Positions 1,285 through 17,112 of a DNA stretch of 24,533 bases are shown here, one piece after another. Source of the stretch: a virus. Its lineage: Duplodnaviria > Heunggongvirae > Uroviricota > Caudoviricetes. The number at the start of each line of letters is the position of its first letter. Position 1 is the first letter of the stretch. The notes beneath the pieces are model-generated. The model had not been told where the DNA came from, made no database searches, and was given only the letters and a program-made list of their open reading frames with translations. Both the position numbers and the translations under genes were made by a program. The DNA lies in IMG/VR virus record IMGVR_UViG_2711768057_000005; one strand, written 5' to 3'.

Positions 1285-2000
1285 AATTCACAGATGTTTT
1301 TTCTCATTCTGTGGTTTCCTTGGCGCTTTCTAGGTTTTTTCAGATAGTTACATTTTTTCAAAAGCATCCTGAGTTCGATCTTACTATCTATCTGTGGCCT
1401 ATTTCTGTCCCATATATGCCCCAAAAAACACCCCAACAGATAAGCAATCTTTTCATGGTGTTACGCGTAAAAACAATAACGGCTTGAAATTATTCAATAC
1501 ACTCTCGAAAGTGCATCAGCCAACCGCAGAACGTTATTGCATACAACGTTTCTGCGGCATATCACGAAACGATTACTTAATGACTGGGACTTCAGACCAC
1601 TCAATATCCGGTACAATTATGTATCAACGCAGTTTAACAACACCCTATATTTAATCCAGAGTGCGAGCAACGTTGTCCCTTTCTCTTTTGCACTCTTAAA
1701 ATATACGATTACTTAAGTGAAGATGCTTGACGAATCGCCAAATAAAACATCTTCATCAGCATAAAAATCCATATATGATTGAAAATTTAGTCATTAATAC
1801 CATTCATATCTGAATACTAACCTAATACGCTTACTAACCGTGAGAAATCTTTTTTTTCGACTTAATCACTCGAAATAAACTTTCACTCAATTGAAAACAA
1901 TTAGCTACAATTATCATTGCAATATCAAATCAAACATAACAACTTGCATAAATTCTCATGGGATACAGCATCAGTTGTGCCAAACACATAAGGAATTGAA

Positions 2001-2198
2001 ATGGACGGAGAAAGCTTTAACTTTGATGACAATGATATTGAATTTATTGCTTCAATGTATGCATCATGTAAATTATCAGGAAGTATCGCCCCCATAATGC
2101 ATATAATGGTTAGCATTCCAAAAAATAAGAAAAAACAATTCTACGAACGAGTTGAGCATTATTGTAGTTTATATTCCAATAAAAACCCACCTTCTTAA
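2001..2198 (+). CDS. hypothetical small acidic protein (65 aa)
   Basis: ATG at 2001 preceded by AAGGAA (1990-1995) at 5-nt spacing. Lies in an AT-rich, otherwise ORF-poor stretch. No recognisable family. Confidence 0.25.
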   Translation: MDGESFNFDDNDIEFIASMYASCKLSGSIAPIMHIMVSIPKNKKKQFYERVEHYCSLYSNKNPPS

Positions 2199-2340
2199 AT
2201 TCGCTGCATTCTAGTGGATTCCATTAAGAAAACAATGACATACACTCAAACACATCTTTTTTATCAACAGTGAATTTCAGTTCGGCCAGTTTTTACCAGC
2301 TATTATAAAAATAGCACCCATATAAAGTTTTTACCCCACA

Positions 2341-2432
2341 GGTACAGCTGGCCATTCGATAACCGCACTAAGGAAGTGCCAACACGACATCAGCAAGACC
2401 CGATATTTCTTCCATGCCGCCAGCAACGATGT
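2341..2432 (-). pseudogene. remnant of a second tail fibre assembly (tfa) gene 3' end
   Basis: Nucleotide similarity by eye between 2341-2432 and the 3' end of the intact tfa at 3030-3110 (shared GGCCATTC..CCCGATA.TTCTTCCA..CCAGCAACGA). The translation recovers a ..IEWPAVPVG-like C-terminus only across a frame break. Confidence 0.45.
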
Positions 2433-2902
2433 TAAGGTTAAATTAATTATAAAAAAATATATTATAATTCCATCTTCGCATTAAATTTTAACCTTTAATC
2501 TCCACACGGAACAAGTTGCATAGGTGACTATATTAAGAAAACTTATAACCACCAAAAAGATTTGCTTTGCAAGCAAAAACAGTGACCATTGACTCTAAGA
2601 AAATTCCGATCTATTGTTAGTGTCATCAAAGTTACTTAACAGTATTCCGAAATGAAAATACAAAGCAAGCTAATTGTCTTATTAAACATTATCATTGCAT
2701 TTATATTATTTGAGCTTTTAGCTCAAAAATTTGGTTTGAGTACATTATTTTAAAGCAAGATAAACAATATCGGGCACTCTAGTTTTTATAATTAACAATT
2801 AAACGCCCATAAAATGTTATTTACTTTTCTTCGCTATTGTCATATCTTAATATAGTGGCTTACGCCACTCTACTTTCATCATATTTTGTACGTTTATGTA
2901 CT

Positions 2903-2932
2903 CGCCATGAAGCTCTTTCATGGCGATTTTTT
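2903..2932 (+). terminator. intrinsic terminator-like hairpin (orphan)
   Basis: 9-bp perfect stem CGCCATGAA / TTCATGGCG with a 5-nt loop, followed by A then TTTTTT. No annotated plus-strand gene ends just upstream. Confidence 0.4.
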
Positions 2933-3018
2933 ATTCTTAATCCAAGAACATACTCCCTACCTATAGAAAAATCACTTTTTGAACAAAAGAATAACGTATT
3001 TAGGTAATCATTACGAAT

Positions 3019-3600
3019 TTACCCTATAGGTGCTACTGGCCATTCAATATCCGGTGCAGTTGTTGTATTAACACGGTTCAGCAACACCCGATACTTCTTC
3101 CAGGCTTCCAGCAACGAGATTTCTTCCTCCGTTGCAATTTCCAGATCTGCAGCATCCTGAAGCGGCGCAATATGCTCACTGGCTACCTGCATCAGGTTGT
3201 TTTTTGTTTCTTCCGCCTCCCGGATCCGGAACAGTTTTTCTGCTTCCGTATCCTTCACCCAGGCTGTGCCGTTCCACTTCTGATATTCCCCTTCCGGCGA
3301 TAACCAGGTGACATTTTCCGGTAACGAGCCAAGTTCAGAAATAAATAACGCGTCGCCGGAAGCCACGTCATAGACGGTTTTTCCCCGATGATCTTCAACG
3401 AGATGCCACGATGCCTCATCACTGTTGAAAACAGCCACAAAGCCAGCCGGAATATCTGGCGGTGCAATATCGGTACTGTTTGCTGGCAGACCTGTATGAG
3501 GCGGAATATATGCGTCACCTTCACCAATAAATTCATTAGTTCCGGCCAGCAGATTATAAATTTTTATGGTCCGTGGTTGTTCACTCATTCTGAATGCCAT
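3019..3600 (-). CDS. tfaQ: tail fibre assembly protein (Tfa)
   Basis: 193 aa beginning [24 protein letters not shown], the N-terminus I recall for TfaQ/TfaR/TfaE of E. coli cryptic prophages. Its start shares one base with the upstream fibre gene stop (TAATG). Confidence 0.8.
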
Positions 3601-6793: not shown

Positions 6794-7009
6794 TTACTCT
6801 CCCCGTGCAGCCTTACGCTTGTCTTCTTTAATCTTGAAATAAAGGTTTGTCAGGTACGTCAGCAGGCCAAATACCAGGCTACCCAGCACACCTATTGCTG
6901 CCCACTGTGAGGGCGTGACTTTATCGAGCAGCTGTAAAAACCAGTAGCCAGCACTGCCTGCGGAGGTGCCGTAGGCAATGCCTGTTGAAATTTTGTCCAT
7001 GGATTTCAT
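6794..7009 (-). CDS. class II holin (pinholin S21-like) with dual-start motif
   Basis: 71-aa product [26 protein letters not shown]...[22 protein letters not shown], nearly identical to my memory of phage 21 S / EssD. Met1 and Met4 give the holin/antiholin dual start. The track ORF carries a 19-codon N-terminal extension that I trimmed. Confidence 0.85.
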
Positions 7010-7111
7010 AGCCTCACCTCCGCACGGAACGGATGGCATAGTTATTATGTGTAGGCTTCCAGACACATCAATCGGAGCCTTAATTGATATATATGCTGGA
7101 GACGATGCAAT

Positions 7112-7137
7112 ATAAAAAGCTCGCCGTAGCGAGCTAA
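7112..7137 (-). terminator. intrinsic terminator downstream of the lipoprotein pair
   Basis: Minus strand reads AGCTCGC-TACG-GCGAGCT followed by TTTTTATATT. Located between the lipoprotein gene end (7261) and the holin start (7009). Confidence 0.5.
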
Positions 7138-7260
7138 TAAAATGTATTTCTCTGATATTATGTTTATTTGTATTAGCTCAGACTTGACATCACAGGTTTC
7201 GTATATAGAACATCATCAAATCTGTCAGTTTGCTATGAATGAGATATAGTAATTGAAGAG

Positions 7261-7656
7261 CTAACCTCGCATGTCAAAGCCAGATTTCTGAAAATCTCTG
7301 TAGACTTCCGGATTGTTGAAGGCCGGAAATTTGGCTTTATGAGCTGCGGACTTTATCGCTTCGCAATAGGCTTTATCACCGTTACTGGTAGATATTTTTA
7401 ACGCCGTGCCATCCTGAGAGAATTCCATATGCAACCTGCATTTTTTCCCTTTCCAGTTATGCGGCTCATCAAGTTTGGCATTAATTGCAGCTCTGATTCC
7501 CCGCGCTTGCGCCCCCCATTCATCCTGATCATCCCAGCGTCCTGAACTGCAACTACCTGTAGCAGTAGTTTTGTGGCAATCTGAAGGGTGTAAAGGTGTG
7601 CATCCCGCAACAAAACCGACCCAAAAAGTCAACATAACGATTTTCTTTAATCCCAC
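7261..7656 (-). CDS. lipoprotein with TolA C-terminal (domain III)-like region, paralogue 1
   Basis: GTG 7656 with SD GAGGAG. Signal peptide plus lipobox (FVAGC). C-terminal KGKKCRLHMEFSQDG..GDKAYCEAIKSAAHKAKFPAFNNPEVYRDFQ matches the TolA domain-III pattern (C.L.....DG...GD...C.A...A.....P.....VY..F) more weakly than its neighbour. Confidence 0.7.
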   Translation of the reverse strand: MGLKKIVMLTFWVGFVAGCTPLHPSDCHKTTATGSCSSGRWDDQDEWGAQARGIRAAINAKLDEPHNWKGKKCRLHMEFSQDGTALKISTSNGDKAYCEAIKSAAHKAKFPAFNNPEVYRDFQKSGFDMRG

Positions 7657-7806
7657 TTCTTGCTCCTCAATCCATTAAAATCTCAGCAATAGTAGTTGTT
7701 ACGTCCGCCACTGGCTCAGAGCTGACTATCCGCTAGATTTAGCTCAGTGCCGTAGTTGTGTCAGAACAAACCTAAGCCGAAACCGTTTATTACAAAACAA
7801 TAAATA

Positions 7807-8235
7807 TCAGGGTTTAAAATCCAGCACCCCATTTTGAAATACTTTATATACTTCCGGCGAAGGGGGGGCAGGTATATCAGCATTCTTTATCGCATTCATC
7901 GCTTCACGACATAAATCGAGGTCTCCACTTTCTCTTTTAACCTCCAGTAGAAGGCCATTCGGGGCCATATGCATTCTCAGTGTACACTCTTTTCCTGAAT
8001 ACTTACTCGCATCCCCGAACTGTTTTTCGATGGCGCTCTTGATTTGATGGGCATACAGACGGATATCCTCACTAACATCAGAAGTACGTTCAGATGAACT
8101 CACATACTGTGTCTCTATTGCTTTATCGGAGTAATATGATGTACGGTCATGATAATTTGTCGATACAGCATCAGTGCACCCGATAATAATCCCACTAATA
8201 ATCAACGTAAGAATTGATGCGCTACGAAAACCCAT
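7807..8235 (-). CDS. lipoprotein with TolA C-terminal (domain III)-like region, paralogue 2
   Basis: ATG 8235 with SD GAGGA. Signal peptide plus lipobox (IIGC). C-terminal 85 aa (YAHQIKSAIEKQFGDASKYSGKECTLRMHMAPNGLLLEVK..GDLDLCREAMNAIKNADIPAPPSPEVYKVFQNGVLDFKP) closely resemble my recollection of the E. coli TolA C-terminus (..GQIKSAIESKF.DAS.Y.GK.CTLR...APDG.LL.IK...GD..LC.......K.A.IP.PPS..VY.VF.N..LDFKP). Confidence 0.8.
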   Translation of the reverse strand: MGFRSASILTLIISGIIIGCTDAVSTNYHDRTSYYSDKAIETQYVSSSERTSDVSEDIRLYAHQIKSAIEKQFGDASKYSGKECTLRMHMAPNGLLLEVKRESGDLDLCREAMNAIKNADIPAPPSPEVYKVFQNGVLDFKP

Positions 8236-8264
8236 TTTTCCTCACATATGTCATATAGTAAAGG

Positions 8265-8294
8265 ATTATATATACCGTTGTTTTGGACGCTCAA
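8265..8294 (-). promoter_or_regulatory. candidate sigma70 promoter for the lipoprotein pair
   Basis: On the minus strand TTGAGC, an 18-nt spacer, then TATAAT, ending about 30 nt upstream of the 8235 start. Pattern only. Confidence 0.3.
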
Positions 8295-8768
8295 ACAGCG
8301 AATCAGATCAAATAAAACGCACATTTGTTAACATTTACACAAAGTCTGCGTGGGATATTCTGAAAGAATATCCATAATGTGGAGAGAATCTATTGAAGTG
8401 CATGGTGCCGGGGGCCTCCCGGTGAATTCAGTACCAGCACCTGAATCCACGATTATCCCATATACCTACTCGCTGATTGCCCCTCCGCACAGGGGGATTC
8501 ACCATGCCAGTTTCTTTTAACAAACTCCCCGCAAACCAGAGAACAGTCAACCGCCTGAATTGTGAAGTATTTAAAAATTTCTCCCGCTAACTGATACCCG
8601 GCTAACAGTCTGGCGTTTTCTTTTTCAGCAACGGGAAAGCAACAACTACCACACCCGCCACCAGCACACCGTCAGCCAGCACTGACATTATCCGGCTGCT
8701 GCAATGCCATTCACAAAAACAGTAAGCAATCACTTTTTACCGTAACAGGTGATAATCCAGATATGTAT

Positions 8769-9122
8769 CTACCCCAGATGAGTAATCCGAAGTTCATCCA
8801 TACCACAGGTCCTGGCTATTCTGTTGTACTCCTGAACAAGAGCAAATAATTCTGAATTAGCAACCATGAACTCATCGCAAACCCTCTGTATAGCATCACT
8901 ATTCAGAATAATAACGTCTCTTCCCGAAAGACGATCAGGAGCACAGAACAAAACTGTCAAACGGCTGAAGGCCTTTGCTCGTGCTGCATTGACTATATCA
9001 ATACGCTGCCTAAGGATGAAACACCCCGACGCCTCATCAATATTCACTCTACCCACACCATATGAATGATAAATATTTAATGCTGAAAAAACCATTAGAC
9101 CGTATAACAAACACTCAATCAA
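8769..9122 (-). CDS. hypothetical protein (weak call)
   Basis: 117-aa ORF. The 9122 start is TTG without a clear SD; an ATG at 9095 is also possible. No family recognised. Confidence 0.3.
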   Translation of the reverse strand: MIECLLYGLMVFSALNIYHSYGVGRVNIDEASGCFILRQRIDIVNAARAKAFSRLTVLFCAPDRLSGRDVIILNSDAIQRVCDEFMVANSELFALVQEYNRIARTCGMDELRITHLG

Positions 9123-12628: not shown

Positions 12629-12784
12629 TTACTCCTCAGGTTCGTAAGCTGTGAAGACAGCGACCTCCGTCTGGCCGGTTCGGAGTCGTACCTCGCAGAG
12701 GTCTTTCCTCGTTACCAGTGCCGTCACTATGACGGTTAAACAGATGACGATCAGGGCGATTAACATCGCCTTTTGCTGCTTCAT
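12629..12784 (-). CDS. hokD: Hok-family type I toxin (HokD/RelF-like)
   Basis: 51-aa product MKQQKAMLIALIVICLTVIVTALVTRKDLCEVRLRTGQTEVAVFTAYEPEE matches my memory of HokD almost residue for residue. SD AAGGAG upstream. The track ORF has a 19-codon in-frame extension. No relBE genes are upstream here. Confidence 0.85.
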   Translation of the reverse strand: MKQQKAMLIALIVICLTVIVTALVTRKDLCEVRLRTGQTEVAVFTAYEPEE

Positions 12785-13401
12785 AGCCTGCTTCTCCTTG
12801 CCTTTCGGCACGTAAGAGGCTAACCTACATGTGTCTAGCATGAAATTGGCCTCAGATTAATGTTAAGCGTCTTGCAGGACGCGTAATGTTAACTGGGGCT
12901 TTTCTCTATCTGCCTTTGGTGTTCATGCCTGAGGCAGATAGCCTCAAGCACCCGCAGCAATTCTACTTAACTCACGTCACCTCGCCAATATAAAATCAAT
13001 CAGAAAGGCGATCCGTAAGAACAACAGCAAGACAATAAATTGCCATTACAGCCGCAATAGCTAGCGCACATTTGAGAACCAGCACGACAACCTCCTGTAT
13101 TGGACGTACACCAGTCCTGATAAATATGAGGCTGTCTCATCATTGATTCAATATAACTATTGGGTATAGTTTCTGTGATTTTGTTCTGTAGAAATGGAAC
13201 ACAACAACCAGTCACCACCAGCACTTCTTTAAATACGCCAAGTCCGACGCAAGCTAACCTTCTAGTCCGCTTTGAGCGATCTGTAGACATTGCTAGCAGC
13301 CTTCTGTGTGAATTCTCAGGGAGCAGGTCGGCATAGCATCACGTTGAGGCTCTTACCCTACTTGTTGACACCAACCCTAACTCCACAGACTGATTCATAA
13401 A

Positions 13402-14403
13402 TTAGTAATCTGCGTATTTCGCACTTTTCAGAAATGCTTTCATATTTTCATTAGGTCGCTCAATTTCGAAGTTACTTCCATATAACTCTTGTAATTTTGG
13501 CCATAACTTACTTAATAACCCTCTCCTGCGATAAAATGGATGTATCCAAACGGTAGATAGGTACGGAGAATTTGCATTTGAATTGTTTATTGTGACCAGC
13601 CCAACTAAACATTGTCGATAACCACTATTATCCATTGATTGTATTTCTTCGACGAATGGATACGCGATTACATCAGTCCAACCATGATCGGTTGTATCCC
13701 ATTGCATTCCGTCATGACATTCCTTCGACTGATAGCGGCGTAAAGCTACACACGCGAGCTTTTGCCAATCTGGAGAATTAATTGTGATCTCTTCATCGTA
13801 TGACGCGCCTATTGGAGCGGGTATTGGTCTGATTAATCCAGCATGGCATTCATCATAGAACTTCATGTTTCCCTCAGAAACGTTGTGTACGTTGGGTTGC
13901 TCCATGTGTGCGCCATTCAAAAATAGCTCTGATAGTAGTGTATCTACACTGTAATCTTTATTGATTATTGTCGGCTTAGAGTTTTTCTTATTAAGGCCGC
14001 GAGTAACGATTTTTTGATCAATGTTAACAACATGGAATAATCCGTCGGGGAGACTAGCGAACCACGATGGGGCATCGGACCAGAATAGCATGCCTTTTGT
14101 ACTTCTTAAGAGTTTAATTAAGTTAATACAAGCTTCTTCACTAGTCTTGCCGTTGATGCGAAGTATGTTAGGACTAAAGTAATATTCATCCATATCAGGG
14201 AATGCAGCTTCGCAAAACTCCTGTACATAATTTAGCACCTGGATTCTACAGAGATCATCATAGCTGGTAATAACTAAGGGGATATCTTCATTACTATTAT
14301 GATTATCAATAATGCAATCTATAGCGAGACTTACTGCTTTGCGTATCACTTCAGTTGAATCTAACGACTCTAAAAATTTTGTCTTTCGTGTGCGAATATC
14401 CAT
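13402..14403 (-). CDS. hypothetical protein with C-terminal GNAT-acetyltransferase-like motif (gene 2 of low-GC insert)
   Basis: 333 aa, ATG 14403 is 15 nt after the upstream gene stop. C-terminal VWIHPFYRRRGLLSKLWPKL resembles GNAT motif A (h-x-P-x-Y-R-x-x-G-h-[GA]). N-terminal two thirds not recognised. Hand-sampled 60-nt stretches give roughly 37% GC. Confidence 0.55.
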   Translation of the reverse strand: MDIRTRKTKFLESLDSTEVIRKAVSLAIDCIIDNHNSNEDIPLVITSYDDLCRIQVLNYVQEFCEAAFPDMDEYYFSPNILRINGKTSEEACINLIKLLRSTKGMLFWSDAPSWFASLPDGLFHVVNIDQKIVTRGLNKKNSKPTIINKDYSVDTLLSELFLNGAHMEQPNVHNVSEGNMKFYDECHAGLIRPIPAPIGASYDEEITINSPDWQKLACVALRRYQSKECHDGMQWDTTDHGWTDVIAYPFVEEIQSMDNSGYRQCLVGLVTINNSNANSPYLSTVWIHPFYRRRGLLSKLWPKLQELYGSNFEIERPNENMKAFLKSAKYADY

Positions 14404-14418
14404 GTATGACCTGCGCTA

Positions 14419-15441
14419 TTAAAATTCATGAATGAACGGTTTGTCATCTGGTTGCAAAATGGTGGTTTTATTCGTTGCTACATTTAAACTGTTGTAGAGC
14501 ATAATTGCCAGGTTCGATGCATTTTCAATCAGCGTTTCAAGATCCTGGTCTGTAATCACTACGAGGTTCCCTTCTTTATCCTTTCCACCACGATGCACTA
14601 AGTGATTTCGATTGAGGGTTGCCAATTCAATAGCTTCTATCGGACAGTCTTTTTGTACTTTTATATCGAATGTAGCTTCATAGCGGTCGATTACCTTTTT
14701 AGTGCTATGCCAGCTTGCACTGATCAAGTGTTCCTTGATTGACCTGATTAGCTCTCCCCTAATTTTCTCGATGGGTTCACCCTTGAAAGGCAACGCAGCA
14801 ATATCTTTGCTTACTTTAAATTCAGTCTTACCTTTTTCTATACAATTGGCTATGTAGACATCATCTTTCTCTATAGAATTAATGAATAGCTCAACATAAA
14901 GCGTTTCCAAAGCTGTAATAACATTCGTGTAGAGCAAACTAAGCAAGTGGTTTTTTTGCTGTTGTTCAGTTTTATCTTTTGCAAGTTTTTTTATTTTATC
15001 GATATTATCAATGAATTTTAAATACGGATTACCGGAAGACGTTACAGCGTCGTAGATATCATCATCGTACCAATCATCTATATTATTTGAGTTTCCAGAC
15101 CAGTCAAAACATTGTGTTTGTAATTCATCTACTAATTCCTCAATATACTCAGATTTAACATATTGACCGAAGATGGATTGTAGTTCTTCGCTCGCATCAT
15201 ACGGCCCGCCATATATGTAAGCATAGCCACCTTCTCTACTTTCATACGGACAAGCATTTGCCGGATCTTCAAAGTTTTCAAAGAACCAGTTTTTCATTAC
15301 TTCGAGTTGATCTTTTTTGCTTATGTATTTTAAAGATTTTAGTGGAACTTTCTTTCCATTAACCTCGAAAACAATTTTCACGATGTAACGCTCCCTTGTA
15401 TCAATTGCGCAACTATTATACCACAGCGAAATACAGGGCAT
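14419..15441 (-). CDS. hypothetical protein with HEPN-like R-x4-H motif (gene 1 of low-GC insert)
   Basis: Start chosen at ATG 15441 because of a strong SD AAGGAGG 6 nt upstream (track ORF extends to 15531). 340 aa. Near the C-terminus LNRNHLVHRGG fits the HEPN R-x(4-6)-H pattern. Hand-sampled stretches give roughly 27-37% GC against about 58% in a sample of the neighbouring replication gene. Confidence 0.55.
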   Translation of the reverse strand: MPCISLWYNSCAIDTRERYIVKIVFEVNGKKVPLKSLKYISKKDQLEVMKNWFFENFEDPANACPYESREGGYAYIYGGPYDASEELQSIFGQYVKSEYIEELVDELQTQCFDWSGNSNNIDDWYDDDIYDAVTSSGNPYLKFIDNIDKIKKLAKDKTEQQQKNHLLSLLYTNVITALETLYVELFINSIEKDDVYIANCIEKGKTEFKVSKDIAALPFKGEPIEKIRGELIRSIKEHLISASWHSTKKVIDRYEATFDIKVQKDCPIEAIELATLNRNHLVHRGGKDKEGNLVVITDQDLETLIENASNLAIMLYNSLNVATNKTTILQPDDKPFIHEF

Positions 15442-15572
15442 AACCTGCCTCCTTAAACTAACATACCATGAGCCAGCAATGTCCGCTATTGGCACAAAGC
15501 GGACAACCACGCTAGCTCTACCCTGTGCCACAAAATGTCAATTTGCATCTGAACTAATGCACTTTAATCTCG

Positions 15573-15995
15573 TCACTTCAATAAATACCGAACATCACCC
15601 TGATAAAACGACAATATGCGCTGCATAACTTCACTCTTCCGGCACTCGCGACAGATTATGTTCTGACGCCTGTCGTAGCGACGTATTTCTCCGTCAGGTA
15701 ATGACCAGATAAGGTCCGGATCAACCGCAGATGGTTTCTTCAGCTTTGCCCTTGAGAGCTTTTTACGGGCATTTTGCCAGTCCTTACGCGCCTGTTCAGA
15801 CGGGAATAACCCGTAACCAGAGTTGCATACATCGCCGCTGGCAACCAGCTCTCTTGCGAGAACGCTCATCAGATATCTTGTCGCACCTGTCTTGACTTCC
15901 AGTTGCCGTAACGTCTCACGCCCACTCTGGCGTACGAGTTCAACAACCTGTCCTTTAATTTTTTCCCGCTCTTCTTGTGTAAAAACTTTTGCCAC
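15573..15995 (-). CDS. hypothetical protein (140 aa)
   Basis: GTG 15995 with SD AGGAGG 5 nt upstream. Basic, with a C-x-x-C pair (CRECRK). Follows the replication gene in the same operon. Confidence 0.5.
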   Translation of the reverse strand: MAKVFTQEEREKIKGQVVELVRQSGRETLRQLEVKTGATRYLMSVLARELVASGDVCNSGYGLFPSEQARKDWQNARKKLSRAKLKKPSAVDPDLIWSLPDGEIRRYDRRQNIICRECRKSEVMQRILSFYQGDVRYLLK

Positions 15996-16035: not shown

Positions 16036-17112
16036 TTACCCCCTGAAGCCCGGCGGAATTTCGTTATCCGGTTCAGAAATATGATTCACACAACGCTGGT
16101 TGTTCGTGCCGCTTACCGGGAGCAACCAGGGGTTCTCAAAATTCCGGTCCGGTCCAAAAAACGTCGTCGCTCGCTGAACAAATTCCGTTCCCGTTTTCCC
16201 GGTAGCCGCCAAGTATCTTGCGTAACGCCTCACGCCATCCAGCATGGCCTCTGGTGGCACCCCCTCGCGTAATCTGGCCTTCCAGGCACTGAAAGCGGAT
16301 TTCTTCGGGTTTGCCCCAGCACGCAACGGGTACTCCCGCCAGACCTGTTCGAACACATCCGGATAATCCACTCGTCCCACAGACTGCCCGGTGTTTTCCG
16401 GGACTACCCGATCGGCTTCCCGCTGAATGGCGGAATCGGCTTCGGGCTGCTGCAGTTGGTGTGATTGCTCCGGCCTTGCGGTCATCACCTGCTGCACAGC
16501 GCCCGAATCGGCTTTCAGCGCATACGCTGAATCGGCTTCCGGTGTCGTGCCTGCTGGCTGACCAAGATTGACGGTCTGAACATCCCCTGCCTGGTTCGTG
16601 GCGTTTTTTACGCCATGGACCATAGTGTTTTGATCTTCTTGATCTGTATCTTTATCTGTATCTTTATCTGTCGTGACTCGTCGTGACATGTGCGTGACAT
16701 TTCGTGACGCGCCGTGACAATCGCCATTTTGTTCCCGCTTTCTTTCCCTCTCTCGCTGCGCCCTCTTGCGCTCTGCAGGAGATTTTGCGGTTTGCGAAAT
16801 ATTGCCGTTGTCCTCTTTAAGCACCTGGCGTTTTTCCCATCCAGTGATTAAATCACCATCAAGTACCCGCCCCTGCATCGTCTGCAAAATTGAATCAATT
16901 ACCTCTTCTGTCACGTCGAGCGCACTTGCCAAATCTTCTGTCGTGACATCAATGTGACCTCGCGTGACATTTCGTGACGCGCTCACCAGGAGGTGGATAT
17001 ACACTGCCATCACTGTTGCAATTGGCTGCCCTGACACCCTGGCAATTGTTCGCCACTTAGGGTCATTTGGCATGTCATGCCATAATCTGAGCCAGGCGTT
17101 AGCCATACTCAC
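16036..17112 (-). CDS. putative phage replication initiator (lambda O-like organisation with ori inside the gene)
   Basis: 358 aa in the position after cro/YdaT. Contains two arrays of (C/T)GTGAC direct repeats at helical spacing, plus acidic and basic low-complexity segments. Family not confirmed. Confidence 0.5.
   Translation of the reverse strand: MSMANAWLRLWHDMPNDPKWRTIARVSGQPIATVMAVYIHLLVSASRNVTRGHIDVTTEDLASALDVTEEVIDSILQTMQGRVLDGDLITGWEKRQVLKEDNGNISQTAKSPAERKRAQRERERKREQNGDCHGASRNVTHMSRRVTTDKDTDKDTDQEDQNTMVHGVKNATNQAGDVQTVNLGQPAGTTPEADSAYALKADSGAVQQVMTARPEQSHQLQQPEADSAIQREADRVVPENTGQSVGRVDYPDVFEQVWREYPLRAGANPKKSAFSAWKARLREGVPPEAMLDGVRRYARYLAATGKTGTEFVQRATTFFGPDRNFENPWLLPVSGTNNQRCVNHISEPDNEIPPGFRG
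16671..16718. repeat. iteron array A: five CGTGAC repeats at 10-11 bp spacing
   Basis: CGTGAC begins at 16672, 16682, 16693, 16703 and 16713. Preceded by 2.5 copies of the 12-mer ATCTGTATCTTT (16642-16671) and two GATC sites. Confidence 0.6.
16941..16978. repeat. iteron array B: four (C/T)GTGAC repeats at 10-11 bp spacing
   Basis: CGTGAC at 16942, TGTGAC at 16953, CGTGAC at 16963 and 16973. Same core as array A, about 260 bp away, inside the same gene. Confidence 0.6.

Follow-up and report, generated by a model that had tools for sequence, protein, structure and literature searches.

The two tightly linked minus-strand genes described here are an anti-phage system that has already been published, DS-33 (DeWeirdt et al., DefensePredictor, Science 2026, PMC13092281). 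With good confidence, the locus is explained as a copy of DS-33 that a Qin-like lambdoid prophage carries in its early-right region as a cargo cassette with a promoter of its own. The window, that is, the whole 24,533-nt stretch of DNA that was analysed, encodes a gene 1 product identical to DS-33A at all 320 residues and a gene 2 product identical to DS-33B at 330 of 333 residues (99.1%). The total length of the two genes and their spacer (963 + 15 + 1002 = 1980 nt) equals that of the published DS-33 span (6922-8901), with the same gene order and the same 15-nt spacer. In the supplementary tables of the publication, WP_014639476.1 and WP_000354965.1 together constitute DS-33, under the working name 'GNAT', and are flagged as defensive (PMC13092281). 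Searches of main-text literature for HEPN plus GNAT, 'RiboL-PSP', the accessions, and PHROG identifiers returned nothing specific, the match being found only in those supplementary tables. A sequence-only reading had proposed the locus as a candidate for defence, which is supported by the anti-phage activity published for the identical gene 1 and nearly identical gene 2; the HEPN-plus-GNAT pairing, which the same reading had taken to be undescribed, is that of DS-33.

DS-33 was reported to confer 2.3-4.7 logs of protection in E. coli against T7, T3, Bas67, and Bas26 in a first screen, and 10^3- to 10^5-fold protection against the same four phages (PMC13092281). In Table S7, which gives single rows in which differences of tenfold or less are not to be over-read, the log10 protection by the wild-type system is listed as 3.78 (T7), 3.30 (T3), 4 (Bas67), 5 (Bas26), and 0.77 (T5), as compared with 4.78, 3.30, 4, 5, and 1.73, respectively, when the GNAT gene was deleted, and 0.08, −0.48, 0, 0.52, and 0.54, respectively, when the HEPN gene was deleted; the R258A variant gave 0.78 (T7) and 0.37 (T5) (PMC13092281). 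Published experiment thus shows that DS-33A and its residue R258 are required for defence and that DS-33B is dispensable against T7, T3, Bas67, and Bas26. The idea of an interdependent two-gene module, also put forward from the sequence, is contradicted as far as tested, with deletion of the GNAT gene preserving defence and deletion of the HEPN gene or R258A abolishing it; the mostly solitary occurrence of both gene families, described below, opposes it as well. The DefensePredictor log-odds tabulated for genes 1 and 2 are 9.45 and 1.08, respectively (PMC13092281). The main text of the article, as consulted, counts DS-33 among four validated HEPN-domain systems without treating it individually, and reports no RNA cleavage, growth arrest, trigger, or target for it (PMC13092281).

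The locus comprises open reading frames at 13402-14403 (minus strand, 333 aa; gene 2) and 14419-15531 (minus strand), the latter including an ATG at 15441 that would give a 340-aa form of gene 1. The arrangement of two minus-strand genes 15 nt apart, recognized earlier, is confirmed by these reading frames and by the intergenic spacer at 14404-14418 (minus strand). The GC content of the gene pair is 37.8% (36.1% for gene 1, 38.8% for gene 2, with GC3 at ~35%), and 60-nt windows across the pair range from 18 to 50% with a mean of 37.6%, as compared with 54.0% in both a replication-type gene (16036-17112) and the DUF968 gene; earlier hand counts of ~27-37% against ~58% were therefore roughly right. 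The pair is placed, as had been stated, between the DUF977/replication genes on one side and hokD/sok on the other, and the view of the cassette as horizontally acquired cargo is judged to be right.

The window belongs to a Qin-like lambdoid prophage of E. coli, and the genome of strain KSC9 matches it fully. The minus-strand order in KSC9 begins with cro/cI-type regulators, YdaT, and a 356-aa hypothetical protein, continues with a DUF977 protein, two hypothetical proteins, hokD, a DUF968 protein, and RusA, and ends with an antiterminator, two tRNAs, and the lysis genes; the integrase adjoins rspB/ynfA. Rfam matches in the window comprise sok (RF01794, 12779-12953), DicF, two tRNAs, and two sRNA families. 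In the Qin prophage of E. coli K-12, relB-relE occupies the slot directly upstream of hokD, and the pair therefore sits where a sister prophage has other toxin-type cargo, which marks this slot as an exchange point for such cargo. Of 5426 complete E. coli genomes, 205 carry the complete pair, and in each of these both genes are annotated as hypothetical proteins. A search of a phage genome collection with the locus gave a match over only ~170 nt, at the end of the query that lies nearest DUF977.

Downstream of gene 2, a non-coding 3′ flank (13290-13401, minus strand) is conserved behind the gene in both paired and gene-1-deleted loci, and in unrelated contexts; an internal segment of ~50 nt is missing from this flank in the window and in two further loci (L117 and L122). 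A test of the flank for RNA structure was not significant (z = 0.0), no Rfam family matched it, and a consensus scan for a terminator after gene 2 found none.

The start of gene 1 required revision. A Shine-Dalgarno-like AAGGAGG-N6-ATG is indeed present at 15441, as had been noted when the gene was assigned 340 aa and a strong ribosome-binding site, and the length of 340 aa is to be replaced by 320 aa. Gene 1 probably does not begin with the ATG at 15441, and the in-frame upstream extension that it opens (15382-15441, minus strand) is probably untranslated as part of the gene: the extension is missing from homologues of 313-326 aa, the corresponding region is not conserved in five cassettes (L129, L130, L132, L007, and L008), and all 55 aligned homologues start with M/V-K-[IV]-V-F, corresponding to a GTG at 15381. 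The resulting 320-aa form (14419-15381, minus strand), equivalent to DS-33A, is the one used by PGAP and by the DS-33 publication. Furthermore, a predicted extended −10 promoter element, TGGTATAAT, proposed from direct reading of the sequence and from conservation, lies downstream of the ATG (15415-15423, read from 15423 to 15415 on the minus strand). Its form TGGTA[TC]AAT is kept in all aligned cassettes except L130—that is, including L129 and L132 despite their unrelated sequence further upstream—and also in the natural gene-1 deletion derivatives L105/L126. A Shine-Dalgarno sequence, AAGGGAG, is located at 15391-15397. In cassettes in unrelated contexts, similarity begins only ~55 nt upstream of the GTG at 15381, and this onset of conservation, together with the conserved −10 box, places the right boundary of the cassette at ~15381 plus ~45 nt of promoter and leader. 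A consensus promoter scan upstream of gene 1 flagged nothing; it would have missed the predicted −10 element because a good −35 element is lacking, and the promoter is proposed from conservation instead. The DS-33 clone carrying the native promoter region is reported as active (PMC13092281).

Gene 1 encodes a HEPN/RES N-terminal domain 1 (residues ~1-115) followed by a RiboL-PSP-type HEPN domain (residues ~140-308). The R-x4-H motif that had been read as characteristic of HEPN RNases (RNHLVH, 14610-14593) is present as part of the putative catalytic motif R258-N-H-L-V-H263-R264 (14590-14610, minus strand), and its R258 is the residue required in the published test. R258, H263, and R264 are invariant among 56 homologues with identities down to 26%, as are W224, H225, and E159. 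In all 56 sequences, the Arg of the motif is followed by Asn or His, in agreement with the Rx4-6H pattern of the HEPN superfamily, and the fold is all-alpha, as in HEPN proteins. Against PF18870, the window's gene 1 scored 22.2 bits (E = 2e-4), below the gathering threshold of 27.4, and 53 of the 56 homologues matched this family at E ≤ 0.01; against PF18735 (RiboL-PSP-HEPN), the window's gene 1 gave no match at E ≤ 1, and 29 of the 56 homologues matched, with a best E of 7e-11. Judged by sequence comparison, gene 1 is thus a member of PF18870 and PF18735 at the family level, this membership resting on its homologues, although the sequence-only reading had recognized no named family. Other searches were less informative: PDB chains searched with both family profiles yielded nothing meaningful (E ≥ 0.045), NCBIfam gave no usable match for either gene, PHROGs returned only two unannotated families, and a word-indexed protein search with the N-terminal domain of gene 1 alone returned only fragments. 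The check with PADLOC that had been suggested for the locus was performed with PADLOC-DB v2.0.0, and returned only unrelated models for gene 1 (best E = 0.01) and no match for gene 2. Besides HEPN and RES, a third type of C-terminus is found behind PF18870, namely a GIGHNxPPE motif with a hydrophobic tail, in Alphaproteobacteria; this is in keeping with a sensor or regulatory module that can be combined with different effectors.

Gene 2 (13402-14403, minus strand) is a 333-aa allele of DS-33B with an N-terminal alpha/beta domain of ~200 aa that has no Pfam match and a C-terminal region (residues ~205-333) with a predicted GNAT fold, as seen in a confident structure model (pLDDT 90.4). The N-terminal domain is restricted to this architecture in a full HMMER scan of 1.84 billion representative proteins; a 570-aa match to it (P0212) was rejected as spurious, the protein being of low-complexity repeats. 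The window's gene 2 scored 20.0 bits against PF00583 (gathering threshold 20.7), and 27 of 45 homologues matched. The loop HPFYRRRGLL, earlier compared with the acetyl-CoA-binding loop of GNAT proteins, is present at 13542-13513 as H288-P-F-Y-R-R-R-G-L-L297 (13513-13542, minus strand) and lies between β4 and α3 of the model. Motif A reads R-R-R-G-L-L as compared with the Q/R-x-x-G-x-G/A pattern; it ends in Leu, and R292 is its sole invariant residue. Conservation of H288 and P289 is ≥90% in the family, which has many invariant residues and a strictly conserved architecture. The GNAT domain stops right after α4, without further strands, and, from reading of the motif, carries Leu where many GNAT proteins carry the catalytic Tyr. 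The three differences from the tested DS-33B are I41, P289, and Y330 in the window as compared with Thr, Leu, and His, respectively. Position 289 is Pro in all 71 gene 2 copies that were fetched and Leu in the published allele. Because the tested allele has Leu289, the published dispensability of gene 2 may not be final, and may not transfer to the P289 allele of the window.

Both families occur mostly alone, and their pairing is limited to one Enterobacterales/Aeromonas clade, as observed in 70 loci collected by gene 2 and 80 collected by gene 1, the latter set having one genome per species. Among the 70 gene-2 loci, every copy of gene 2 with ≥72% identity and enough room upstream is paired, with three exceptions. 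In all paired loci the spacing is constant, gene 1 ending 18 nt (stop codon included) before the ATG of gene 2. Among the 80 gene-1 loci, gene 2 is present only beside the two closest; gene 1 homologues stand alone in five enteric loci at 54-76% identity (Aeromonas, Yersinia, Pantoea, and others), as do ~50 distant homologues from many phyla, and all marine relatives of gene 2 are likewise alone. In the gene 2 tree, the three lone enteric copies (L104 and L105/L126) are nested among paired copies, and their upstream DNA reveals two independent internal deletions of gene 1, both of which left in place the promoter region together with 45-75 nt from the end of gene 1; these loci were found by gene 2, and deletions of gene 2 could not appear among them. 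The tree and the lone copies indicate that the pairing arose once and that neither gene needs the other to persist.

Outside E. coli, paired cassettes adjoin GajA/GajB, a dGTPase with a methyltransferase, LeoBC with GajB, or a restriction-enzyme-like gene. Members of the gene 1 family usually stand alone, carried by mobile elements or located close to defence genes. Integrases, transposases, and SIR2, ResIII, CapP-like, and RmrA genes are among their neighbours, and one lone homologue lies in an island with a DruA gene (L004). No recurrent partner of lone gene 1 homologues emerged among 148 neighbours, the most frequent Pfam family being phage integrase (5 of 148). Lone gene 2 copies neighbour an integrase, a P4-alpha-type primase, an AAA_13 ATPase, a HigB toxin gene, and a gene matching Abi_2 weakly.

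These observations bear on how the two genes relate to each other. MNT AMPylates HepT, and by analogy an obligate two-component or toxin-antitoxin system could be envisaged in which the GNAT protein neutralizes the HEPN RNase, for example by acetylation, or activates it. Such a system would fit the observations that every paired locus keeps the same gene order and 15-nt spacer, that the cassette moves as a unit between unrelated contexts, and that only gene-1 deletions, the usual route of decay for a toxin gene, were seen in the paired clade. However, deletion of the GNAT gene left viable cells with full defence, which largely refutes it; no gene 1 homologue below ~80% identity has gene 2 beside it, no marine relative of gene 2 has gene 1 beside it, and the apparent bias toward gene-1 deletions arises in a collection made through gene 2, in which the converse loss is invisible. 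The ability of each gene to persist without the other further argues against a toxin-antitoxin relationship, a reading that was rejected since both genes tolerate loss of the other, and an obligate pair of any kind is now highly improbable.

Two readings in which gene 2 is not essential can be considered. That it is a tuner of DS-33A—dampening the RNase or narrowing its activation, and so reducing the damage done to the lysogen or to its own prophage—is suggested by the tenfold higher protection against T7 and T5 upon GNAT deletion, by co-transcription of the two genes from one conserved, predicted promoter, and by maintenance of the pairing over divergence of gene 2 down to 72% identity. The gain, however, lies within a single tenfold dilution step and is unreplicated in the table, and T3, Bas67, and Bas26 were unaffected; moreover, gene 2 remains promoter-linked after natural loss of gene 1, and its deeper family is never found beside a gene 1 homologue. 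This reading is unlikely. The same retention of gene 2 with its promoter, the lone relatives placed among mobile-element, toxin, and Abi_2-like genes, and the strictly conserved architecture with many invariant residues would fit gene 2 as independent cargo, for example a separate enzyme for defence or counter-defence, or a function in lysogenic conversion, that is merely stacked next to DS-33A in the hotspot. Set against this are the HEPN-deleted construct, which had no phenotype on the five retested phages, the low DefensePredictor score and absence of a PADLOC match, and the GNAT domain that stops after α4 and has Leu at the usual catalytic Tyr site; independent cargo is accordingly a tentative possibility, with a chance clearly short of even.

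The HEPN family is known for RNase activity of an infection-activated kind. On the explanation preferred here, DS-33A would be a single-protein RNase of the abortive-infection type that acts alone and is activated by infection. Its N-terminal domain may keep the HEPN domain inactive or sense an infection cue, and, once activated, HEPN dimers would cut cellular or phage RNA (tRNA, rRNA, or mRNA) and so halt phage production. This proposal draws by analogy on the activity of the HEPN family, from the precedent of HepS, and from the PF18870 domain shared with aRES, both of which are compared below. DS-33B would be an acyl-CoA-transferase-like accessory gene, serving as cargo with a function of its own or as a non-essential modulator, and would have joined gene 1 once, at the base of the Enterobacterales/Aeromonas clade.

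A bolder joint reading, improbable as it stands, is that DS-33B is a working acyltransferase whose role was masked by the P289L substitution in the tested allele and, separately, that PF18870 is a portable infection-sensing module. Wild-type gene 2 might then restrain or retarget the HEPN RNase, or be a second, independent conflict function. Such a sensing module may be common to DS-33A (HEPN), aRES (RES), and the alphaproteobacterial hydrophobic-tail proteins.

As a discovery, the locus adds little, the system having been validated and named in 2026. It does confirm independently that a genuine defence system can be picked out from motifs, GC content, and the setting in a hotspot. The modest interest that remains lies in gene 2 and in the shared N-terminal domain: gene 2 is conserved and is retained after loss of gene 1, yet has shown no phenotype so far, and its role is still testable.

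Among known systems, the growth-arresting enzyme is a HEPN RNase in HepT/MntA (type VII) and a GNAT acetyltransferase in the type II GNAT/RHH systems, TacT and AtaT. Neither type describes the locus: no NTP_transf_2 match was found in gene 1 or gene 2, so there is no MNT partner, and gene 2, at 333 aa with an extra, unrelated N-terminal domain, is about twice the size of a GNAT toxin and is flanked by the HEPN gene and non-coding DNA rather than by an RHH gene. The best reported remote match of DS-33A is subunit B of PD-T4-2 (Vassallo et al., 2022), a RiboL-PSP-HEPN protein; in the publication's tables, the HHblits probability is 96.1 over 55% of the protein (PMC13092281), and a review lists PD-T4-2 among the defence systems with PF18735. 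The partner gene and the N-terminal domain differ, however, and the PADLOC model for PD-T4-2 gave no significant match to gene 1. HepS of the Salmonella prophage Gifsy-1, an abortive-infection RNase that cuts tRNAs in the anticodon loop once triggered by protein J of the siphovirus tail tip (PMC13043305), is similarly a prophage-encoded HEPN protein that works alone with no conserved partner; unlike DS-33A, its homologues are restricted to at most 250 aa, with no extra domain, and its catalytic His is H105 (PMC13043305). With respect to domain content, DS-33A is likened to aRES, a RES domain with PF18870 that was validated as a stand-alone defence protein in a preprint of the Sorek laboratory, in that aRES proteins combine an N-terminal PF18870 domain with a toxic effector and are found in defence islands (10.64898/2026.01.28.702374), and 53 of 56 members of the gene 1 family carry PF18870. 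Membership of gene 1 in aRES itself was rejected: no RES match was found, the C-terminal domain being HEPN, whereas the aRES effector is a RES NAD+ phosphorylase. Overall, DS-33A belongs to a large, mostly stand-alone family combining PF18870 with HEPN that runs parallel to aRES, which suggests a shared sensor domain with interchangeable effectors.

Directly upstream of hokD, the K-12 Qin prophage (L155; E. coli K-12 NC_000913.3 1645119-1645872) carries relB-relE, whereas the window, compared over 12629-15381, has the DS-33 cassette, consisting of gene 1 (HEPN protein) and gene 2 (GNAT-fold protein), at this position. The site upstream of hokD thus resembles a location at which cargo of the toxin type is swapped. 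Separately, when positions 13300-15650 were searched against E. coli genomes, some of them (NZ_CP141840.1, NZ_CP080075.1, and NZ_CP116981.1) matched in two pieces, with IS903B or IS3 inserted between the pieces.

Within the cassette, almost the whole of gene 1 has been lost in two independent natural deletions, represented at three comparison loci (L104, L105, and L126), with gene 2 remaining intact downstream. At the deletion junctions (L104:5850-6000, L105:5850-6000, and L126:1460-1607), the upstream promoter region is joined to the final 45-75 nt of gene 1. On the other side of gene 2, approximately 110-160 nt of non-coding DNA was observed to be kept across unrelated genomic contexts, namely in the window (13290-13401) and in L006, L104, L121, L124, L127-L129, and L141; an internal stretch of approximately 50 nt is missing from this 3′ flank in the window, L117, and L122. 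An RNA-structure signal was sought in the conserved flank and none was found, and the flank matched no Rfam family. Between gene 2 and sok lies a 96-aa Cys-rich ORF (13000-13290, minus strand), which is unannotated in the matching RefSeq genome, that of E. coli strain KSC9.

Homologues of gene 1 also occur outside the cassette. In Yersinia alsatica (L008:1680-8402), a stand-alone homologue with 75% identity is accompanied by a divergent 453-aa gene, the protein product of which gave no match in a PADLOC search. This pair is flanked by a large ORF on one side, and by an Ogr-like zinc-finger ORF and then a portal-like ORF on the other; on visual inspection of these ORF sequences, the setting looks like the cargo hotspot of P2-like prophages. 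Phage_GPA was matched by 1 of the 148 ORFs neighboring stand-alone gene 1 homologues, a count pooled over loci. In a set of alphaproteobacterial proteins of 227-463 aa (L058-L084; for example, L058:5902-6744 and L066:5923-6822), likeness to gene 1 is limited to the PF18870-like N-terminal ~100 residues. Their C-terminus is unlike that of gene 1, contains a conserved GIGHNxPPE motif, and in most of these proteins ends in a hydrophobic helix; it may represent a third effector type joined to the PF18870-like N-domain.

Elsewhere in the window, a 1.7-kb stretch of 30-39% GC (1285-3019), the longest ORF of which is at most 86 aa, sits between a transporter-like gene (1-1284) and a tail-fibre assembly gene, with a match to Rfam family IS009 (3059-3257) within the latter. 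The prophage late region contains an STnc100 sRNA match (8346-8536, minus strand) together with two small ORFs that are paralogues of each other (7261-7656 and 7807-8235, minus strand); the RefSeq annotation of the matching genome gives these ORFs as TolA C-terminal-domain genes, one intact and one partial.

With respect to the published system, codon 289 of gene 2 (13537-13539) lies inside the conserved GNAT loop HPFYRRRG, and encodes Pro in the window and in each of the 71 gene 2 copies examined; the experimentally tested DS-33B allele has Leu at this residue (PMC13092281).
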